DNA from: Eledone cirrhosa
Taxonomy: Eukaryota
NCBI GenBank assembly: GCA_964016885.1
Contig: OZ024745.1
Span: 79,360,001-79,424,000, forward strand
Length of the DNA stretch: 64,000 nt
Direction: 5' to 3'
The position numbers and the translations under genes were made by a program. The notes under the pieces were generated by a model. That model had not been told where the DNA came from and ran no database searches. It worked only from the letters and a program-made list of their open reading frames with translations. This document shows, piece after piece, positions 2,731 through 31,639 of this stretch (position 1 is the first letter of the stretch; every line of letters begins with the position of its first letter).

Positions 2731-4034
2731 AAATTGTTAAAAATGTTCACTTTCAATAATGAAAGTAACGTGATTCGTGGAAATGTTAGTTCATAGGTGC
2801 TCTTTTTGGAAACGCTATCAACTTAATTCATATAATTATGCATAAACAACATTCTTATTTTAAGGAAAAAAAAACAATTTTAATATTAATCATTACGTAA
2901 AATTTTGTTTTAATCACGGGGATTTAGTCCTACCTACACTTTCTTTAAATGTAGAGAAGTTAACAGCTCTTGAATTGAAACTAAAACAAGTTGGGCTTGT
3001 CTCCATGGAGATCGATCTCTTAAAAACGATTCAATAGAAAACCATCAGGGGTGGGGAACTAAATTTGAAAATAGCATTCTACATTAAACATATTGACTGC
3101 TTTTAAGCTTCGAAACCAAAAAAATAACAATGGTGAACCTGCAATTACACAAAAATCGTGTGGTAGATTAGGCTAAAATATTCTACCGAGAAAATAAATA
3201 TAAAAGAGATACGGAAAGACTGAAAACTTTTTAATAATCATAAATGCATCAAGACAGCCAAAATTGTATTAGGTCAAAGTATCAAAAACACATTTTTCCT
3301 TCTAAACATACCTAAAACTTTTATGTTGATTATTTTTTCCTTTAAAAAAAAAATTCGATTTTAATGGATTTAAATGCATATATCATGACCGTTTTAAATT
3401 AAATACTTGACCAATTCTGCTTAATGTTGCATTCTTATTAACTTCTTCATTGTGTGAATAGACAATAGGTTGCTATTGTACGATAAACAACCAGATGAGT
3501 TTTGTCAGCAAAATGGGTTTCAATTCAGAGAATTAACACTGAAGATTAGTTTCGATTCGTTCTCCCAATTGAAAAAGATTTATTTGGTTATCTTTTTTAA
3601 ATCTGTAGCTACATTTATAAAAATCATTAATTCCTATTTATATATTTCTCAAGATGAACCTGATGATTTAAATGTATTTCCTCTTGAAGCCACTGGTAGT
3701 CATGTGAAACTTAATATGAATACTCAACTTCCACATGGTGTGTTGATTGCTTTTCTATCTACTGTACCCACAACTGTGTGCGTATAGTCTGCGATCGGGA
3801 TTTTACACCTGTCTCTCTATATATATATATATAGGAACGAGTAGGACCCCGACGACTGAGCTCAAGCCGTTTCGACTATTACCCACTCTACTACCCTAAG
3901 TATTGAGTACTTTGGTGCGTTATAGTCCACCTGGTTCCTTACCACATTTCCTTCGTTATCTATATATATACCTAACTCGTCCCATGGACTGAGTGCTCTA
4001 CCACCTACGGATATTACCTTCCAGTGTTCTACCA

Positions 4035-4085
<51 letters not shown>

Positions 4086-4819
4086 TATTCATGTGTCTTT
4101 AACTGTTTATACTAACTGAGCGAAAAGTTCAATACCTATTCGAGTACAAATAACTTATACAGTATTGATTAACAAGAAATCAGTAAAATAACTTTTAACG
4201 CTGGTGGACTATTAAATAGTCGCGAAATTCACCCTCGTGGATATATGAACATGAACACGATTTCACATATTCTTCGCGCTTATCTCCATTGTCAATGAAT
4301 CCATCCATGTGCGTTGCAAATTTGTACTATTATTTTATATAAAATCGAGTTAGTAATATATCATTCGGATAGTTACTATGTTGGGCGGTGTAAACTTAAA
4401 AGAAATACAGATATTTTTCGTCGTTTTAATCAAGTCGAGCTAACAAGTAACAACCAAGTACTATAGTCGTCCAAAATGTGGTCCGTCTGATTTTTCTGAT
4501 TTTATGGCAAATTAAAGAAATTATTATTATTTAGTAAAAAAAAAAATCATGCTACTAACACAAGCGCTTACCTGAAAAATTTGAATTTGTTCCAAAGAAA
4601 TAATTCCTTCCAGAGAGATAATATATACATAAAAGGATAAGACGTAAAATACTATCAAACGTGGATAGAATCAAACACTGCTGAGAAATCTGCTAGCCGG
4701 AACATTTATGTTGGTTGGTTAATTAGACATGTAACATGGTCTTAGCCAATAGAAATATATGTTTTATTTTCGTAGGATCCAATCAAATCTAGCGTTATAA
4801 AACTTTCCCTTCAACATAT

Positions 4820-5000
4820 AATTTGTCACAAAGCCAGCAATTTAAAGGGGCGGAGAAAGTCGATTAAATCGACCCCATAACGATTAAAGGCAAGCTAACC
4901 TCGGCTTGATTTGAACTCAGAACGCAAAGGGCCACAACTCTATATTGCTAAGCTAAGCATGTTGTCCGACGCTCTACCAATCCTGCCAATTCACCGCCCT
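4820..5000 (-). mobile_element. tRNA-derived SINE
   Basis: On -: GGCGGTGAATTGGCAGGATTGGTAGAGC (A box) ... GAGTTCAAATC (B box). Flanked by near-direct repeats CCTT(C/G)AACATATA. Confidence 0.7.
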
Positions 5001-6698
5001 TCCTTGAACATATATCATTTATTCCTTCACTTTAAATTTTATTAAATAAAAGTTCATTTTCGTTTTTCGTAAATTTAATTTTGACTATTCTCCGAATTAA
5101 AAAAAAATTTCATATTGTGTGGAACAATGAAAACATGTTTATTTTCCATGTTTGCATGGGTTAGATATTTTTCATGTACTGAGGCTAGATTAGTAAGTTG
5201 ATCACGTCAGGCTCACACACGGTTTTTTTTTTGGGGGGGGGGGGGCTTGGTTTCTACGGCTGGATGCCCTCCCTAACTCCAACCACTTTACAGCACGGAC
5301 TGGGTGCTTTCTTATAAAGTGTGGTGAGTGCGTTGTTATCGTGACACCCATATTGAGAAGCATTGATGGAAGATGGGAGGGAAGTTATAACACCAAGGGA
5401 GACTAAAGTGTTGAGTCATGGAGGTGGCTTTGAAGAGAGTGAGTTGTGTCAATATATTTACAAAATTGGTGCAAACTCTCTTCATCTCCACAGTGTGCAT
5501 AGAATTCCCAGAAAATTTGTGCCTGTATTTCAGACAGTTCTTAAATTGTGATCAACATTCTAACAACTCTGCCAATTCACTTAGATAGATACAAATACTA
5601 CAAGAATAAGTCATCATTATAATCATCATCATCAATATCATCACAGTTCAACATCTATTTTCCATGAATGCATATTATGGGCTGTCATGTTATAAGGCCA
5701 GAGGATTGTTCATACGTTTCATTTATGGCTTTATTTTCTATGGCTGGATGCCCTTCCGAATTCCAATCACTGTACAAGGAGCATTTTTCAAGGCACTAGC
5801 ATTATCTGTCTTTGCAGAGGTAGAACAACAACAACTTTGTTAGATTGATATTTTTAAAGACAGAATAACTTTGCGGATGATGTATAGGGTTAAAATCCAT
5901 TGTAGGTGTTTTGGTGAGTTTCATTGGGGGAAGTGCTTTATATAATATGAACTTAGCAAGCAAATTCTTTTTCGTTCTTTTTGCTCTCCATGGAACCCTC
6001 GTAACGGGAGATCTTTCCACACGGTTGCAAGCTTTGTTGTTCCTGTAGCAATTTTTATTAATGTAGGTAAGGTTGCTAACCTCAGGCTCCATCCATCCTC
6101 CCTTCTCAATACAGGCCATTCAAAGTCAGTTGAAGGGGATGGTAACCCTAGATAGGGACCCATCCGAGGTATTATCAGCTGGTGTCAGTTGACCCTGGGA
6201 CTCAAATCACTTATGTTTATTTTCAAACTTTACTACTCCCCCTAGCTTAACACAACGAACATTCAGTTGTCAAGAGAGGAGATTACTTCAATTACATCAA
6301 TTCAATTGATGTAAATAAAATGATCGAACTCTGTAGTATACCTTCCATTACCCTCAGAAATCAAAAGCAGATAGTTTTTTTAACTTTCTGGGCAGCGTTT
6401 GATAATTACAGAGTTAGCTACTTTATTCTCTATTCAATATAGTCCCACCTACTCGCTACCATGACCCCCACCCAGTTACATTGTTGATACTTGTACTAAA
6501 GAAACTAAAAAGCACATCTTTTGACCGGATATTTATTGTACACGGAACATTTTATTAGTGCTCTTTTGATTTTTCAACACCGTACACTTCAAAACAAGCG
6601 CGGCACATTAGAGCGGGAAATTTCTAACGACACGTCTTTGGTACTTACGGCGTCTTTGATCAATAAGCAAATTTTTAAACATCATTACCAGCAAAAAC

Positions 6699-10655: not shown

Positions 10656-11109
10656 TCTAAACTATAATAGAGGAGTGTGGGACTGCGTCCAGAATATATT
10701 TTTTTATCCCATTTGTATTTTGGATTACTTTGAATAAATAATGAATGAATATTACATAATTTATCTACTAAATTCCATTATTCTTGATTAAATATAAATA
10801 ACTTTGTTGCTTATTTTAAGATCCACTTTTCCGGTTAGCGATCACTTAAATAAACATTCATATATTTCCGTCACTAATTTTCTCCTAATGGAGTTTATAT
10901 ATAATATCGTCTTTTTTTAATGTATCATGGATTACGTTACTGATTATGTAAGACAGTGTAATGCAGTCTTCGTTCAATTTCTGTGTATATTGTCAATTAC
11001 GATTCTATTTGATGTATCATATCTACATGCATATATACTTACGTATAATATCAATATGCACACTACACATGCTAACAGAAAACCACCCGAAGGGTGGTTT
11101 TTCTGCTAG
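10656..11109 (+). mobile_element. Non-autonomous Helitron, complete copy
   Basis: A|TC 5' end, 3' hairpin AAAACCACCC-GAA-GGGTGGTTTT, CTAG|T 3' end, no TSD. Second copy at 516-960. Confidence 0.85.
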
Positions 11110-15166: not shown

Positions 15167-16344
15167 TATATATATATGATAATAATAATAATAATAATAA
15201 TGAAAATTATTGTGTACAGTGCTCAGGTGCACTACAACCCATCAAAGGTCAGGAAAGTGAACAGTGTCTGAGTCATGATATGCATACACACACACACTGT
15301 GCAATCACAGACACGTAAGGCATACGAATGTACGTTGTATAATGCAGTCAGTGAGTGTACACTGTTTTGTAATTATACAGAAACGTGTTATAGATTGAAC
15401 ATAATAAATTTCTCCTTCTGTCCACTACTTCCTCCCTAGTTTTGTGTGTGTTTTACTAGACCATATTTATATGTTTCATTGGAGTTTTAGGAGTTTGTCT
15501 TGAAGCTGCTATTCCCAATAATAAATCGAATTCACATACAGTGAAAGATTTTTTAAATACGTGCACAACAAATTATCAAAACAAAGTAAACCTCTTGTTG
15601 AGTCAAAAACCACTATATGCTGAAACAGTCTGCGATAAGAGTTACTCTAACTCTTGAACTAGAATAAATGGAAATGATAACTCGTATACCTATATATATA
15701 TATACACACACACACATACACATATATCATCATCATTTTATAGGTTACAAAATGGGGAGTTTTATTGGCTATTAAGTGGTAGTACAGGTGCCACAAAAAA
15801 GTACCCACCTATAAAATCCAGGCTCCAGCAAGATATTCTTGCCTAGAAAATAAAGGGAGATAAATTAACACAGCCAGTCATTTTGTTGGCATTCAACTAT
15901 TTGCTGTTTTCTTATCTTAAATATTATACTTATATTAAAATTTATCTCATAATATTTTCATCATCATTTTACATCCACTCTTCCCTGCTTGCAAGTGTGG
16001 GACAGGTCCTATTCAGCACAGCATCTCTCCACTTGTCACGGTCCTTTGTCATCTCCTCCGTGAGCTTCAGCAATCTGAGGTCTGCTCTCACCACCTCCAC
16101 CCATGTTTTTTGTGATCTTCCTTCTACTGGGATTTATTAAATATATATATAATACATTTCTTTCACCCACTCTTCTGAATATTGATGTTAAAGAAATTGT
16201 TAGATGGGTAATCAGTCTTTGAGGCTAGACAGGCAATCAGATGACTGTCTTGTTCATACGTTCTATTCTGGCATGGTTTCTATGGCTGGATACCCTTTCT
16301 AATGCCAATCACTTCATGGCATGTACTATGTTCCTTTTCTTGTG

Positions 16345-16600
16345 GTTCCAACACTACCACTTTACAGTGTTGGGGTGGGTGTATTTTATCATGGCACCAG
16401 CATTACCACTTTCCAGTGTGGGATGGGTGCACTTTATCATGGCACCAGCACTACTACATTACAGTGTTGGGGTGAGTGCATTTTATCATGGCACCAGCAC
16501 TACCATTTTATAGTATGGGATGGGTGCACTTTATCATAGCATCAGCACTACCACATTATAGTGTGGGGTGGCTGTATTTTATCATGGTACCAGCACCACT
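16345..16600 (+). repeat. ~48-bp minisatellite (RTE 3'-UTR derived)
   Basis: Repeats of TTTATCATGGCACCAGCACTACCACTTTACAGTGTGGGATGGGTGCA; paralogous array at 18000-18250. Confidence 0.85.
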
Positions 16601-16679
16601 ATTCAGTCTAGAGGTCTTTTTTTATGATTTTGTTTTTCTCTATGGTAATCAAATTGAAACATTGATTAATTCTTCTCAG

Positions 16680-17738: not shown

Positions 17739-17999
17739 TTATTCTCTCTCTACAATTTATCTTGATATTTTATATATATATATATTTCTTTCATCATTGA
17801 TGTAAAAGAAATTGTTAGATGGGTGATCAGGCTTTGAGGCTAGACAGGTAATCCGATGACTGTCTTGTTCGTACGTTCTATTCTGGCATGGTTTCTATGG
17901 CTGGATACCCTTCCTCATACCAATTATTTCACGATATGCACTGTGTTCTTTTTCTCTTGGCTCTACTACAACCACCTGATGGGGTGGGCTGGGTGCTTT

Positions 18000-18250
18000 T
18001 TTCGTGGCACCAACACTACCACTTTACAGTGTGGGATGGGTGCATTTTATCATGGCACCAGCATTCCCACTTTACAGTATCGGATGGGTGTATTTTATCA
18101 TGGCACCAGCATTCCCACTTTACAGTGTGGGATGGGTGTATTTTATCATGGCATCAGCACTACCACCTTACAGTGTGTATTTTATCACGGCACCAGCATT
18201 ACCACTTTACAGTGTGGGATGGGTGTATTTTGTCATGACACAAGCACCAC
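18000..18250 (+). repeat. ~48-bp minisatellite, duplicate of the 16345 array
   Basis: Same unit; lies within a larger ~540-bp direct duplication. Confidence 0.85.
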
Positions 18251-26050: not shown

Positions 26051-26822
26051 CGATGGAGTGCCATCCATCTATATATATGAGTGCATTAGTGGCCTCGACA
26101 CTAATGTGCAAGTGACTGAGCAGTCTATAGATACATGTATCCTTAACACAATTTCTGAACTGAATCAGCATGATACAATATGTGACAAAGCTGCACCTTT
26201 GATTAACAGGTACAATTGATACAGACAAACAGACAATATATATGATGAGCTTCCAGAGTTTTCATCTACCCAATTCATTTATGTCTGAGTTCAAAAGAAA
26301 AGATATCTATATATATAGAGTGGTGAAATTTTCATCACTGCTCTAACAGATGTTAGTAATTAAATGTATAAAAAATATAAATTAAAAACCGTTGCAACTG
26401 GCTGAGTTGATGATGTTAAGCTACTAGTTCAAGGGTTAGCAGTTGATATGTCAACAGCACTGCATTGTGAATATGGCCATAGCGCTGTCCATTTTGCTGT
26501 AAACAGTAACCTGCAATGGCTCAGGGGTATCCATATTGGGGGTGGGTAGTGGGAGGCATCCAACAAAAGTATCACAGAATCTTCTATTCAATAGAGTTAC
26601 TGAGCATAGATTTCTCAAGTGCCCATCAAAAATCTTCTCCCAGGTCAAAATGCCTCTAAAACTCGAGTTTTAGAGGCATACAATCAAGGAGCTCGCCCTG
26701 TGCATCACCAAACCTCTGCATGCATAGGTAATTATAGCTGATGGAAACAGGAATGTTATATAATTAAAAACTATTTCCATAGTTTTCAATGCTAAGTTCA
26801 AATCATACTAGAGGTATAGCAT

Positions 26823-27421
26823 TGTAACGACGTGGTTAGTCAGTCTGGTTACTACTTCTGATCAGATCCGAGAATAGCCCTTAAAAGGATTGTTATCGCA
26901 TACGGTCTGATTGGATCTGAGGGTAGCCCTTAAAAGGACTGTTGTCTCATACGGTAAGGATGAACAGACGAAAGCACAAGTTGAAAGGACGAACAAGGCG
27001 AGAGATGTAGTTTCTGTCAGCTATTTATTTTCATACATGAAGCGACGATACAGAGGTACAAGGTATGTGTGAGTGACAAGCGTGGCAGAGGAGAGGAACA
27101 ACGATACACTAGTTGACCTTTGGCAGAGTCAGCTCGCGTATCGTTGTTCCTCTCCTCTGCCACGCTTGTCACTCACACACGCCTTGTACCTCTGTATCGT
27201 CGCTTCATGTATGAAAATAAATAGCTGACAGAAACTACATCTCTCGCCTTGTTCGTCCTTTCAACTTGTGCTTTCGTCTGTTCATCCTTACCGTATGAGA
27301 CAACAGTCCTTTTAAGGGCTACCCTCAGATCCGATCACACCGTATGCGATAATACCCTTTTAAGGGCTATTCTCGGATCTGATCAGAAGTAGTGACCAGA
27401 CTGACTAACCACGTCGCTACA
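26823..27421. repeat. Palindromic LTR-like terminus A (599 bp; ~285-bp arms, 30-nt centre)
   Basis: TGTAACGACGTGG...CCACGTCGCTACA; about 9 differences between arms by manual comparison; internal 49-bp tandem duplication; AATAAA on both strands. Confidence 0.95.
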
Positions 27422-27423
27422 AT

Positions 27424-27441
27424 TGGTGACCCCAACGTGAT
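27424..27441 (+). promoter_or_regulatory. Primer-binding site, tRNA-Trp (18 nt)
   Basis: TGGTGACCCCAACGTGAT, 17/18 complementary to the tRNA-Trp 3' end, 2 nt after the ...ACA terminus. Confidence 0.9.
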
Positions 27442-28227
27442 GTTTGACACTATGCTTAATAGGTCCATCCTTAAATACCGGGCGAGTGATGTCTGGGTAT
27501 TTCTGGAGAATGCCGTTGTAACACGAAGGCTCTGACTGGCAAATTACAGGGCTCACTGTGGATTGCGTGGTAAATATACCTCTCACAGTGAGGTTTGTGG
27601 TGGTGTCAATAAGCCTCCTGTTCTTCATGTCCACCAGAAAGTTGAAGTGGTGGAGAAAATCGGCTCCTAAGATAGGGGTCGGCAGGTCTGCCATGACGAA
27701 CACCCATTGAAAACGACGCCTCAGGCCTAAATTGAGGGTCAGTGATTTCTCCCCGAAAGTCGGAATTGACGATTGGTTCACTGCCTGCAGAAAGGACGGT
27801 GTTGGATGTCTTTTGCCCGAGACTAGTGAAACAGGAATAACACTAACCTGGGCTCCTGTATCCACAAGGTAACGGAAGCCTGTCGCTTGGTCGTTGATAA
27901 AAAATAGACTTTTCTTCTCAGTACCAGGGGTGAACGTTGTCGCTAGGCCCTGGGTGGTATTCTGGAAAGAGCACGGGTCTTTGCACTTAGATGCCTGTGC
28001 ACCGAATTCTGTGTGATACCAGCAGAGGTTGCCAGACACGATTTTGACTGGGACTTCTGTATCTTCGACTGAAAAGGCCTGGATCGACTGTTGCTGCGTC
28101 GTCGGTGTGTTTGAAAGGTCAGATTCTCTACTTGATTTGAGAGGGCTTTAATTTGACCAGCCCGCTCTCTGATCATAGCCCACAGCTCTGAAATCTCGAC
28201 CTCTGTCGTTGGTTGTGACATGTCCAT
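27442..28227 (-). pseudogene. Gag C-terminus (CHCC zinc box) + aspartic protease, truncated before RT
   Basis: RRRSNSRSR tract, CWYH-x9-C-x3-C, LVDTGAQVSVIP, ILGADFL; one frameshift near 28040; ends at KHSVKHH. Confidence 0.9.
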
Positions 28228-28253
28228 GTTGGTATCTTCTTAGGCTGCTGTCT

Positions 28254-28285
28254 GGTTGCGTGTTCGAATCACGTCGGGGTCACCA
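28254..28285 (-). promoter_or_regulatory. Extended primer-binding site, tRNA-Trp (32 nt)
   Basis: + strand GGTTGCGTGTTCGAATCACGTCGGGGTCACCA matches the mature tRNA-Trp 3' end including CCA; 2 nt from terminus B. Confidence 0.92.
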
Positions 28286-28287
28286 TT

Positions 28288-28684
28288 TATAACGAAGATT
28301 ACGTGTCGCTGGAGATATTATTAAATTTATCGATTCAGAAGGCAATGACAAAAACGACATAATCCGTTGTAACAAAAATTCCCTTTTATTTGTTGTACAA
28401 ATATGGAATCGAAAATAACAAGAGAAGGTTGATCAAGTCTTCACATCGTGTTGGCTGCATGGACGTCTTGATACTGGTTGTTCAGTGAACTCTCTCTGCC
28501 TGTCAGCCAACTGTGCCTCTGGTCCAAGTAGTCCCGCAACTTGTCTTGATCTTCTCTTGTTATTTTCGATTCCATATTTGTACAACAAATAAAAGGGAAT
28601 TTTTGTTATAACGGATTATGTCGTTTTTGTCATTGCCTTCTGAATCGATAAATTTAATATCTCCAGCACGTAATCTTCGTTATA
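28288..28684. repeat. Palindromic LTR-like terminus B (397 bp; ~140-150-bp arms, ~107-nt centre)
   Basis: TATAACGAAGATTACGTG...CACGTAATCTTCGTTATA; arms differ mainly by three short indels; AATAAA on both strands. Confidence 0.95.
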
Positions 28685-29115
28685 GCATGTAGAACATTGG
28701 TTTCCAAAGTGGGGGTCTACTGACAACTAAGGGATATTGAGATTATTTAATTGATGTTGAGATTATTAATGAAGACCTTCCTAAGGGATTTTTGGGTTTA
28801 TTGTTACACTTATGAAATTTATTATATTATTTTCAATAGAGCAATAGAGTCATGATATAAACACCCTCTGGGTAATGTTATTTAGGGTGAGGGGTCTCAC
28901 AGCAGGTGAAGGGTAAGTTTAGGAGTACCTGATGCAATGGTTTGGACTCTGGTGCTTATATACATTACATGAAAATGGAACCTTCAGTAATGTACCAACA
29001 ACTCAATAGTTTTTGTGACAGACCATCGCAACATTTAGTACTTAGTTTCTTTACTTTATATAGATTCATGAAACTGGGTCAAAAAACATGAGTTAGGTAT
29101 GTTTGTTGGTTAGTT

Positions 29116-30003
29116 TCAGTTCTTTTTATTTTCTAAAGTAGGGTTTTTAATCACAAAGTCGGAACCTTCAATTTTGACCTCTTCATAAAGCCAGGGTCGT
29201 TCACAGCGACATTCTGTACCACATTTTTCTGAGCCACATTTCAGACAAGGGAAGTGACAGCCGGGGCAGTCGATATCGAGACAGTCACACATGTCGATGC
29301 CTGTGGATATTAAACATCCAGACTCATCGTACATTTGCCATTCGTTGAATTTCTTCCGCCTCTTTTTTTTCTTCTTCCTCGCTTTGAAACGCACGGTGGA
29401 TTTCATTGTGGGTTTTAAAGTTGTTGATGTGATTGCCTTAGATGACGTGGTCACAGAATGACCGTTTCTACCACCTAATCTAGTGGTTACCGACAGGGTA
29501 TTCTCGCTTTTTACAGTTTCTTCTGCCTTCGTTACCGAAGTAGCATCAGTATTGATTTTATCAGTGGTTTTCACATCTGAGAAAAAACTTTTATTGTTTA
29601 TCGGAAAAGCTTCTTTTTTCCAATCATTTTTTTCTGTGGGTTTAATATCCTTAGTATCTGTCATTTTGCCCACTTCATCCGTTCTCGTTTCATCATCGTT
29701 ACTCTGTTTTTCTGTCGTTTCATTATTCCCGCCGTCAGCACCTTCTATTATATTGCCGTCTTGTTGTCGATATTGACGCCTTGAAGCCCTCGTTACCGCA
29801 ATTTTTCTTCTGGAGTTATCACCTTTATCGTTACCACTCTCATCACCATCATCATCATCATCATCACCCCCAGAATCACTTTCTAATTCTTCGCCGTCTT
29901 TCCTTTCTGAACTCGTATCTGCCGCCTTCATCGTGTAACTTCCGAACTGTTGTTGTTGCAAGTGTAGAACGTAAGTTGTACCCTTGGAGTACCTTATGTT
30001 CAT
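29116..30003 (-). CDS. ARL14EP: ARL14 effector protein-like (ARF7EP_C domain), single coding exon
   Basis: C-terminal YDESG...DMCDCLDIDCPGCHFPCLKCGSEKCGTECRCERPWLYEEVKIEG matches the ARL14EP Cys-rich domain. Basic NLS-like tract; acceptor-like TTTCTGTACAG just before the ATG. Confidence 0.9.
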   Translation of the reverse strand: MNIRYSKGTTYVLHLQQQQFGSYTMKAADTSSERKDGEELESDSGGDDDDDDGDESGNDKGDNSRRKIAVTRASRRQYRQQDGNIIEGADGGNNETTEKQSNDDETRTDEVGKMTDTKDIKPTEKNDWKKEAFPINNKSFFSDVKTTDKINTDATSVTKAEETVKSENTLSVTTRLGGRNGHSVTTSSKAITSTTLKPTMKSTVRFKARKKKKKRRKKFNEWQMYDESGCLISTGIDMCDCLDIDCPGCHFPCLKCGSEKCGTECRCERPWLYEEVKIEGSDFVIKNPTLENKKN

Positions 30004-31639
30004 TACTGTACAGAAATACTTAATAAATGTTAACCATTACAAATATCTTATTTTTCAACACTGAGAGAAGACTTCCAAACGATGTTTCAAAACATGTGCT
30101 ATTGTATTTATAATATTGTAAATAATCGCTTAATGCGTATTAATTGTAGTCAGTTTTCTTCAATTTTTTTTTAATGCTGTTGTTCCTTAAACTTGATTTG
30201 AGATTGTTTTTCGTTGCATTTGTATATACTGACAATAAAATGAATCGAACTGAATTATAAAATAACTTCAGTGTGCGTAGATGAAAGACGGAAATAATGA
30301 AACAGAAAGTATCAGTTTTAACTTTACAAGTTCAAAGTTTTTCTGAAAACATCGTCAACGGGTGGAACGTGGTAAATTAAAATAACGATTTCATCATCAA
30401 AGAAAAATATATAAACAACTTACAACTATCATTCCATAATGAAATGGTTAAAACGTCTCATTGGGTAGAACGTAGATGTAAATAATATATGTTTATATAT
30501 ATGTATGTGTAAGTATATTCCTCACGGATGCAATATCAAGTCCAATGTTTTCAACCAGGATTTCTTTTTTTTTTTTACTAATGTTTATGTAACTCTCCTC
30601 AGCATGGCGAAATGAGGTAAATTACTCCACACTCCCGTAGTTGTTGCTGTTGTGTAGCTCTTGGCTATCCTTTATTAAAACAGATCCAATGACATGTAGG
30701 TTGGTTAAACGACAAAATGCTGTCTACATCCTGTATAGAGGCTCGTTCGTTGTGTTCTGAGGATGTCGTTGTTTACACACAAGTCAGCCTTGATTGGACT
30801 ACGGACAAATGCCTCAAGTAGTAAAAGATAAATAAAATCTACTTTTAGTTTTTAATAGCTTACATTATGAAAGATAATTTACGCGATAAAGCATCGATAT
30901 TTCAAATTCTGTTTTATTTTTTACTCTACGGGTTTTTTGCCATATGGAGTTTTTGTCATGGACCCGCCCTGATCGAGCAGGCCAATGGTGAAAGGCCGTC
31001 CAGTCGTGACCAACTGTAGTTTTTGTAGTATTTAGGATTGCATGTAATGTATCGTTTCCGTATTTAAGACGACAGAGTGTGGTTTGAAGATTTGGTAGTT
31101 ATTTCTAGTAGGTCGAGTGTGATTGAATATGTAATGACAGGGATTCTGTGGATTAGAGTATACAGCAACACTATACAACATACATTGGTGTTGATGGAGC
31201 GCCCGTGGATGTTCTTCGAATGTTTGTACTTCATTTGATTTTTTTGTGTTTGTTTTTTCCTTCTACGTCTTCTATGTAGGGTGTGAATGTTGTAGGTATT
31301 TTTAATATCGTAGTAGGTCCACTGACTCCACAGGTCTTCATCGGTTGTCTTGTCGCCTGAATACTGGTCGCTTCGCTCACCCTACTGAGTTAAACCTAAT
31401 TATCAAGCGGGCCCTGGCTCGTGTCAATAGCCATCAATTCTGGAGACAGCTATTGACATGGGGAGAGATCAGCTGGCCTTACTCTTTGCCCTATTTCATT
31501 TGGGACGCCACAGTCAATGAAGCTTGCTCCTTGCCACATCCTAGATGGTGCGTTAAAGTCAGAGGGTCACTGGATCCGTAGCAGAATGGAACACAATTTT
31601 AAAATACCAGTAATTATTAGCAAACTATTTTTTCCAGCT

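Follow-up and report, generated by a model that had tools for sequence, protein, structure and literature searches.

Introduction

MITE and foldback DNA transposons are characterised by a long inverted repeat, which extends from the termini to the centre, and by a short target-site duplication (TSD). The CsRn1 clade of gypsy elements (CsRn1, PwRn1 and AgCR) is distinguished, in the portions of PMC2582038 and PMC3630058 available to us, by its PBS motif, a CHCC motif, a GPY motif and a 4-bp TSD. For the Triticeae, the accessible sections of Sabot and Schulman (2007, PMC1950507) describe template-switch complexes in which co-packaged RNAs were fused during reverse transcription and a single TSD surrounds the whole; these complexes consist of closely related elements arranged as direct tandems with three LTRs, and they are still expressible. 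The minus strong-stop DNA of HIV-1 self-primes by means of a hairpin that the 5' end of R forms, giving inverted R-U5, a product presented in the available text of PMC6088434 as an in vitro dead end that is suppressed by nucleocapsid and undetected in endogenous virion reactions. Asymmetric and inverted HIV-1 proviruses are attributed in the accessible part of PMC9278108 to intermolecular transfer at the PBS, with inversions surviving integration.

Here, we describe a 599-bp hairpin (positions 26823-27421) within a 64-kb stretch of DNA from Eledone cirrhosa, referred to as the window. The hairpin forms the left end of a 1,862-bp composite (26823-28684) with GCAT at each flank. This composite is a single dead insertion rather than a novel type of retrotransposon terminus. 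It is probably a one-off faulty cDNA, generated by a reverse-transcription accident in a VLP that would have contained RNAs of two CsRn1-type gypsy families (A and B), with self- or cross-primed strong-stop DNA and approximately four template switches, and integrated by integrase.

Like the Triticeae complexes, the composite is surrounded by a single TSD (GCAT/GCAT); unlike those complexes, as far as the accessible sections of PMC1950507 describe them, it is inverted, possesses two U5 ends, unites families with unrelated LTRs (~64% identity in pol patches) and lacks similar outer LTRs, an internal LTR and two complete cores. A product of the layout described for HIV-1 self-priming in the available text of PMC6088434 is here found in a germ-line genome. 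The proposed switching at the PBS resembles the intermolecular transfer of the proviruses in the accessible part of PMC9278108, which involve one virus on both templates and no double-U5 hairpin. Both donor families share the tRNA-Trp-type PBS, CHCC, GPY and 4-bp TSDs with the CsRn1 clade; however, relative to that clade as portrayed in the available portions of PMC2582038 and PMC3630058, the composite lacks U3, PPT, RT and integrase, its terminal repeats are inverted rather than direct, and the LTRs of family B end in TATA instead of TACA. In contrast to MITE and foldback elements, the hairpin is single copy, its arms are LTR R-U5, and a PBS and gag are attached to it. A literature search of limited coverage (without most subscription journals and Repbase) returned no integrated strong-stop hairpin and no palindromic-LTR family.

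Structure of the hairpin and of the composite

A preliminary description of this stretch had reported a hairpin with TGT..ACA ends and arms of about 97% identity, a 49-bp tandem unit in each arm, a partly pairing centre and AATAAA on both strands, all of which were recovered by alignment and folding. The termini are located at 26823 and 27421, and when the two halves are aligned 15 of 300 columns differ, i.e., nine in the 285-bp arms (96.8% identity) and six in the centre, which consists of an imperfect 7-bp stem around a 10-nt spacer. The predicted RNA fold has an MFE of -557.4 kcal/mol (z -57.8), and none of 100 shuffles folded as well. The motif CCCTTAAAAGG is present at 26878 and 26927, 49 nt apart, and recurs as the reverse complement at 27308 and 27356, 48 nt apart; the two 49-bp units are identical at 38 of 49 positions, and one unit is absent from the family A loci L115, L119, L125 and L133. 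AATAAA is found at 27216 (+) and 27024 (- strand).

Three features were missing from that description, namely a second hairpin (28288-28684), an opposing PBS (28268-28285) and the GCAT duplication around the 1,862 bp (Table 1). Both outer ends of the composite are intact U5 ends, derived from two different families, and instead of two direct LTRs, U3 or PPT the composite contains inverted R-U5 pieces of these families; no host DNA was found inside 26823-28684. Its gag piece is a short form, 540 bp less than that of L061, which is common to 16 of 29 other examined loci. Since it lacks U3, PPT and pol, the composite is unable to copy itself and is not mobile; without read-through by host transcription it remains an inert inverted repeat. 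The suggestion that the hairpin carries a symmetric promoter fails since U3, with its TATA box, is missing from it.

Table 1. Features of the composite, in positions of the window
Feature	Position	Strand	Evidence
Left target-site duplication, GCAT	26819..26822	+	Flank match, chance of the two flank 4-mers matching 0.006; joint bridged by an X1 Logan contig over 26100-26880
Left arm, inverted family A R-U5 that begins at +25 and reaches the intact U5 terminus; left integrase end	26823..27110	-	Match to family A LTR 193-487
Two 49-bp U5 units, mirrored in the right arm; an ordinary family A feature	26867..26964	+	38/49 identical
Right arm, family A R-U5 extending from the transcription start predicted by motifs as far as the end of U5, without U3	27111..27421	+	TATAAATAG spacing in normal copies
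Imperfect 7-bp stem with 10-nt spacer, at the 5' end of R, where the fold-back joint lies	27111..27134	+
18-nt PBS of CsRn1/tRNA-Trp type; last 5 nt overlap the inverted pol sequence	27424..27441	+	Motif as given in the available part of PMC2582038
Family A internal piece comprising short-form gag (CHCC) and protease, truncated close to the RT start	27437..28267	-	ORF; RVP 4.8e-6
Second PBS; point where family B U5 crosses over to family A interior	28268..28285	-	1 genome match
Family B LTR, 3' part (L066 LTR positions 94-365), U5 ending TATA	28288..28551	-	Sequence match
Terminal ~134 bp of family B U5 in inverted copy; right integrase end	28552..28684	+	98.5% to its partner
Right target-site duplication, GCAT	28685..28688	+	Flank match

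Donor families

Family A is represented by three intact copies with direct 487-bp LTRs, PBS, PPT and 4-bp TSDs, and its LTR is an ordinary CsRn1-type gypsy LTR with U3 and TATA present. The TSDs of the four intact copies L061-L064 are 4 bp in every case (GATC, ACCT, AAGC and CTGT). The PBS, TGGTGA(G/C)CCCG(T/A), is of tRNA-Trp type by motif and was identified in 40 LTR+PBS matches; no tRNA gene was found within the 64-kb window. The Gag motif CX2HX9CX3C (CHCC) occurs in the window ORF and in all four of L061-L064, which likewise all possess GPY in the integrase C-terminus, and the domain order of L063 is RT, RH and IN zinc finger. By PBS motif, CHCC, GPY and 4-bp TSD, the donor families are CsRn1-like.

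Family B also generates 4-bp TSDs, and normal family B elements continue with their own sequence after the PBS. The LTRs of families A and B are unrelated (best local match 15 nt), and their interiors show 63-65% identity in three patches. At the family B loci L031-L058 the LTRs start with TGTAGT and end with GTTATA, the U5 end thus being TA where CA is usual. Many of the family A insertions among L002-L083 lie within (TA)n or (CA)n microsatellites, which hints at a target preference. In L061, a single TSD-flanked element, the two LTRs (547-1033 and 5976-6462) are asymmetric, differing at several positions of R in which of the common family alleles they carry.

Position of the joints

In normal family A copies where the distance was measurable, TATAAATAG precedes the first base of the right arm by 31 nt in 35 of 44 and by 30 nt in a further 7. 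The usual TATA spacing places the transcription start about this distance downstream, which makes the first base of the right arm (27111) the predicted +1 and the arm itself a putative R-U5. The arm start agrees with a TATA/initiator prediction derived solely from motifs, and with the start so predicted the right arm has the extent of minus strong-stop DNA. Along the minus strand of the window, the order is PBS complement, U5', R' to +1, one A (+25), R from +26, and U5. The imperfect 7-bp stem at the start of R allows the antisense to pair at its 3' end, although among decayed copies this end is paired in the MFE structure in only 12 of 48.

Plus-strand synthesis ordinarily copies 18 nt of tRNA, and the switch from PBS to pol occurs between nt 14 and 18. 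The family pol harbours a PBS-like site with five exact terminal nt and a loose 9/11-nt homology to the PBS; three copies (L105, L109 and L118) possess a G after the PBS, which would stretch the microhomology to nt 20. The crossover between families B and A is located inside the shared PBS. Breaks in the family B LTR cluster at 86-97 in the window, L065, L066 and L067, with some ten breakpoints seen. No TATA box was found in the family B LTR, and its start site is uncertain. No U3 remains at either end of the composite.

Copy number of the hairpin

The 3.0-Gb genome was searched for both families, and 40 of 644 candidates were scored for family A and 40 of 70 for family B. All 39 other scored family A places (best 40 of 644) match one arm only, over ~312 bp, and a normal U3 is present upstream of the matching part in each of 55 distinct other copies, 54 of which met the motif while the last is a variant on inspection. 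Furthermore, the LTR bears U3 in all 29 other examined LTR+PBS loci, and the family B LTR is likewise non-palindromic elsewhere (best 40 of 70 candidates). The exact palindromic centre of the hairpin occurs at one place in the genome, i.e., this locus, which is also the only match to a genome-wide pattern for any palindrome around the centre with a 10-40 nt gap, to the PBS-pol joint and to the junction of family B U5 with family A interior.

The LTR origin proposed in the preliminary description was borne out in that the hairpin is LTR-derived, adjoins a PBS and gypsy internal sequence, and belongs to a family with 4-bp TSDs; the hairpin is, however, not the LTR of that family. A palindromic-LTR family was largely ruled out, given that the other copies scored are one-armed, that those examined have a normal U3 and that the centre is single. 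Solo hairpin copies that could be mistaken for MITEs, a possibility raised in the preliminary description, were not found, and the centre is present at one genome place. A mobile chimeric family with family B LTRs and family A internal sequence was also ruled out by the single genome match.

Relationship between the two arms

The arms are 96.5% identical (3.5% divergence) and differ at 11 columns, four of which are CpG-type transitions. This identity resembles that of the LTR pairs of intact copies (95.9-96.5%) and fits arms that were identical at insertion. The arms share two rare alleles that are not due to CpG decay (present in 2 and 5 of 55 copies, respectively) and that no other copy carries together; at least two rare alleles are shared by 17 of 1485 other copy pairs. 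In a free tree of copies the arms were joined in 0% of 200 bootstraps, rising to 20% upon removal of CpG columns (AU test neutral, p 0.54), and the CpG-masked tree with the arms held together was 1.5 log-likelihood units higher. The arms also differ at +25 by an allele that is common in family A (A in 17 of 55 copies), a difference which simple self-copying leaves unaccounted for, unless it represents a non-templated base or a later mutation, and which, like the free tree, counts against the reading preferred below.

Rearrangements at other loci

Thirty of the 40 LTR+PBS matches of family A were examined, of which 28 continue normally; in the window and in L132/L135 the break falls close to PBS nt 18. 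In L135 (2412-6080, G000:C8), the PBS-gag region is replaced by an inverted piece of U5 (80 bp) and PBS, with the joint at PBS nt 17-19. For family B, L067 2359-2883 (G000:C1:31254858-31255382) represents a 525-bp inverted product that has U3 at both ends and a duplication of CCTT, and is composed of a full LTR, a PBS-to-PBS joint, a short inverted U5 and inverted U3 1-97. L068 contains a PBS and inverted U5 but no second end, and the pattern of a PBS followed by inverted U5 was found at two places for family B and none for family A. L066, L069, L070 and L085 are also rearranged and, together with L068, display an inverted LTR piece in the interior, PBS plus inverted U5, or LTR-PBS-U5-end mini forms. 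No matching TSD was seen in L135, L068, L069 or L070. The family B element of L068 adjoins a 44-bp tandem array of ~1.8 kb (3055-4877).

L065 (4528-8203, family B) harbours duplications of 1.2 kb (inverted) and 500 bp (direct), host flank included, with 400 bp of flank duplicated and breaks at LTR 90-94. Since host flank is duplicated, this event is DNA-level, indicating that the family B 90-94 site can break outside reverse transcription. The rearranged loci were drawn from similarity-ranked lists and thus provide no genome-wide rate.

Read support

The read check covered 26100-27135 only. Within this region, the Logan contig of run X1 joins the left flank to 58 nt of inverted U5, while a second sample, X4, reaches 13 nt into the element, which is below the 31-nt rule. 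The two runs come from the same study, and the source sample may itself be X1. Two RAD-seq runs contributed 10 and 14 reads only, and no RNA run was among the runs listed as containing the flank sequence.

Origin of the composite

The joint positions, the U5 ends, the 4-bp duplication and the uniqueness of the composite are seen directly; in what order the switches occurred, where transcription started and how the ends were cleaned are proposals drawn from the sequence. Under the favoured reading, family A minus strong-stop DNA would not have been transferred to the 3' R and would instead have self-primed, or cross-primed with a sister strong-stop molecule, via the 7-bp stem at the start of R. 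The arm layout is that expected of a self-primed product, and strong-stop fold-back, which the preliminary description had raised, is the probable source of the hairpin. The complementary strand would then have copied 18 nt of the tRNA primer, and its PBS end may have mis-annealed to the PBS-like site in family A pol RNA. From there, RT would have continued back across protease and gag as far as the PBS, where it would have changed to a family B template that shares this PBS; near the presumed 5' end of family B it would have jumped onto antisense family B U5 and terminated at the U5 end, with integrase finally accepting the two U5 ends. The coincidence of the joints with landmarks of reverse-transcription intermediates (predicted +1, PBS nt 18, the PBS and exact U5 ends) supports an accident of this kind, as do the similar types of joint in the independent copies L135 and L067, and the GCAT duplication, being of the family TSD length, supports insertion by integrase. 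Blunt U5 ends without tRNA-copied overhangs are left unaccounted for by this reading, and the DNA-level break of L065 at family B 90-94 also counts against it, together with the G after the PBS in three copies, the few copies with a paired antisense 3' end and the lack of a matching TSD in L135, L068, L069 and L070. In a search for an empty site, matches to paralogues of the left flank stopped ~100 bp short of the joint.

An unlikely alternative is that nested or adjacent family A and B elements were deleted and inverted after insertion, by fold-back repair or microhomology template switching, GCAT/GCAT being due to chance or a leftover. L065 exemplifies such an event in family B with the same break site, all inner joints exhibit short microhomology, the 7-bp stem could equally prime fold-back at a chromosome break, and TATAGCAT on both sides would permit capture at a break via microhomology. 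These observations are opposed by the lack of host DNA inside the composite and of U3 at its ends, by ends that stop exactly at the U5 termini of two different families, and by joints that coincide with the predicted +1, PBS nt 18 and the PBS.

An assembly or library artefact arising from fold-back chimeric long reads is very improbable: the locus is indeed a single copy with two fold-backs in 2 kb, and none of the 13 contig pieces listed, of 118 in all, crosses the hairpin centre, but the CpG-type transitions among the differing arm columns resemble natural decay, the duplication has the family TSD length, and the joint between left flank and inverted U5 is bridged by a contig. Least credible of all is a family or subfamily in which a palindromic LTR was propagated as such. 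The two hairpin LTR pieces at this locus speak for it, as does a scoring that covered 40 of 644 and 40 of 70 candidates, whereas no other scored place matches both arms, exact genome-wide patterns of the centre and of the PBS-pol and B/A joints are matched at this locus alone, and the other examined LTR+PBS loci bear U3.

If the reverse-transcription reading is correct, the composite would constitute in vivo germ-line evidence that strong-stop fold-back can be completed and integrated, that integrase takes two U5 ends from different families, and that gypsy families are packaged together and recombine via a common PBS even though their LTRs are unrelated. It would also serve as an annotation warning, such hairpins being accidents and not palindromic-LTR or MITE families. 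The composite is a single dead insertion, and its significance is mechanistic. It is conceivable, though somewhat doubtful, that CsRn1-type elements in this genome repeatedly convert strong-stop intermediates, which are dead ends in HIV, into integrase-competent fold-backs with two like ends (U5/U5 here, U3/U3 in L067), across co-packaged families with unrelated LTRs. Were this so, long genomic hairpins, and possibly dsRNA with them, would arise from a continuing source, and the insertions would form a fossil record from which RNA start sites and RT errors in vivo could be mapped.

Genomic neighbourhood

An open frame of 306 aa, which resembles ARL14EP and contains an ARF7EP_C domain (Pfam E 4e-26), occupies 29116-30036 (-), and the gene ends at 29116. 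Its AATAAA signals at 28797 and 28818 lie ~115-135 bp before the composite, and only read-through transcripts are predicted to carry the hairpins. Elsewhere in the window, 577-887 and 10720-11035, ~10 kb apart, contain inverted repeats measuring 137 bp (96%) and 77 bp (92%), which may represent a TIR element or SINEs in opposite orientation, while 48-bp tandem arrays are present at 16323-16647 and 17984-18245 inside a dispersed SINE-like repeat family.
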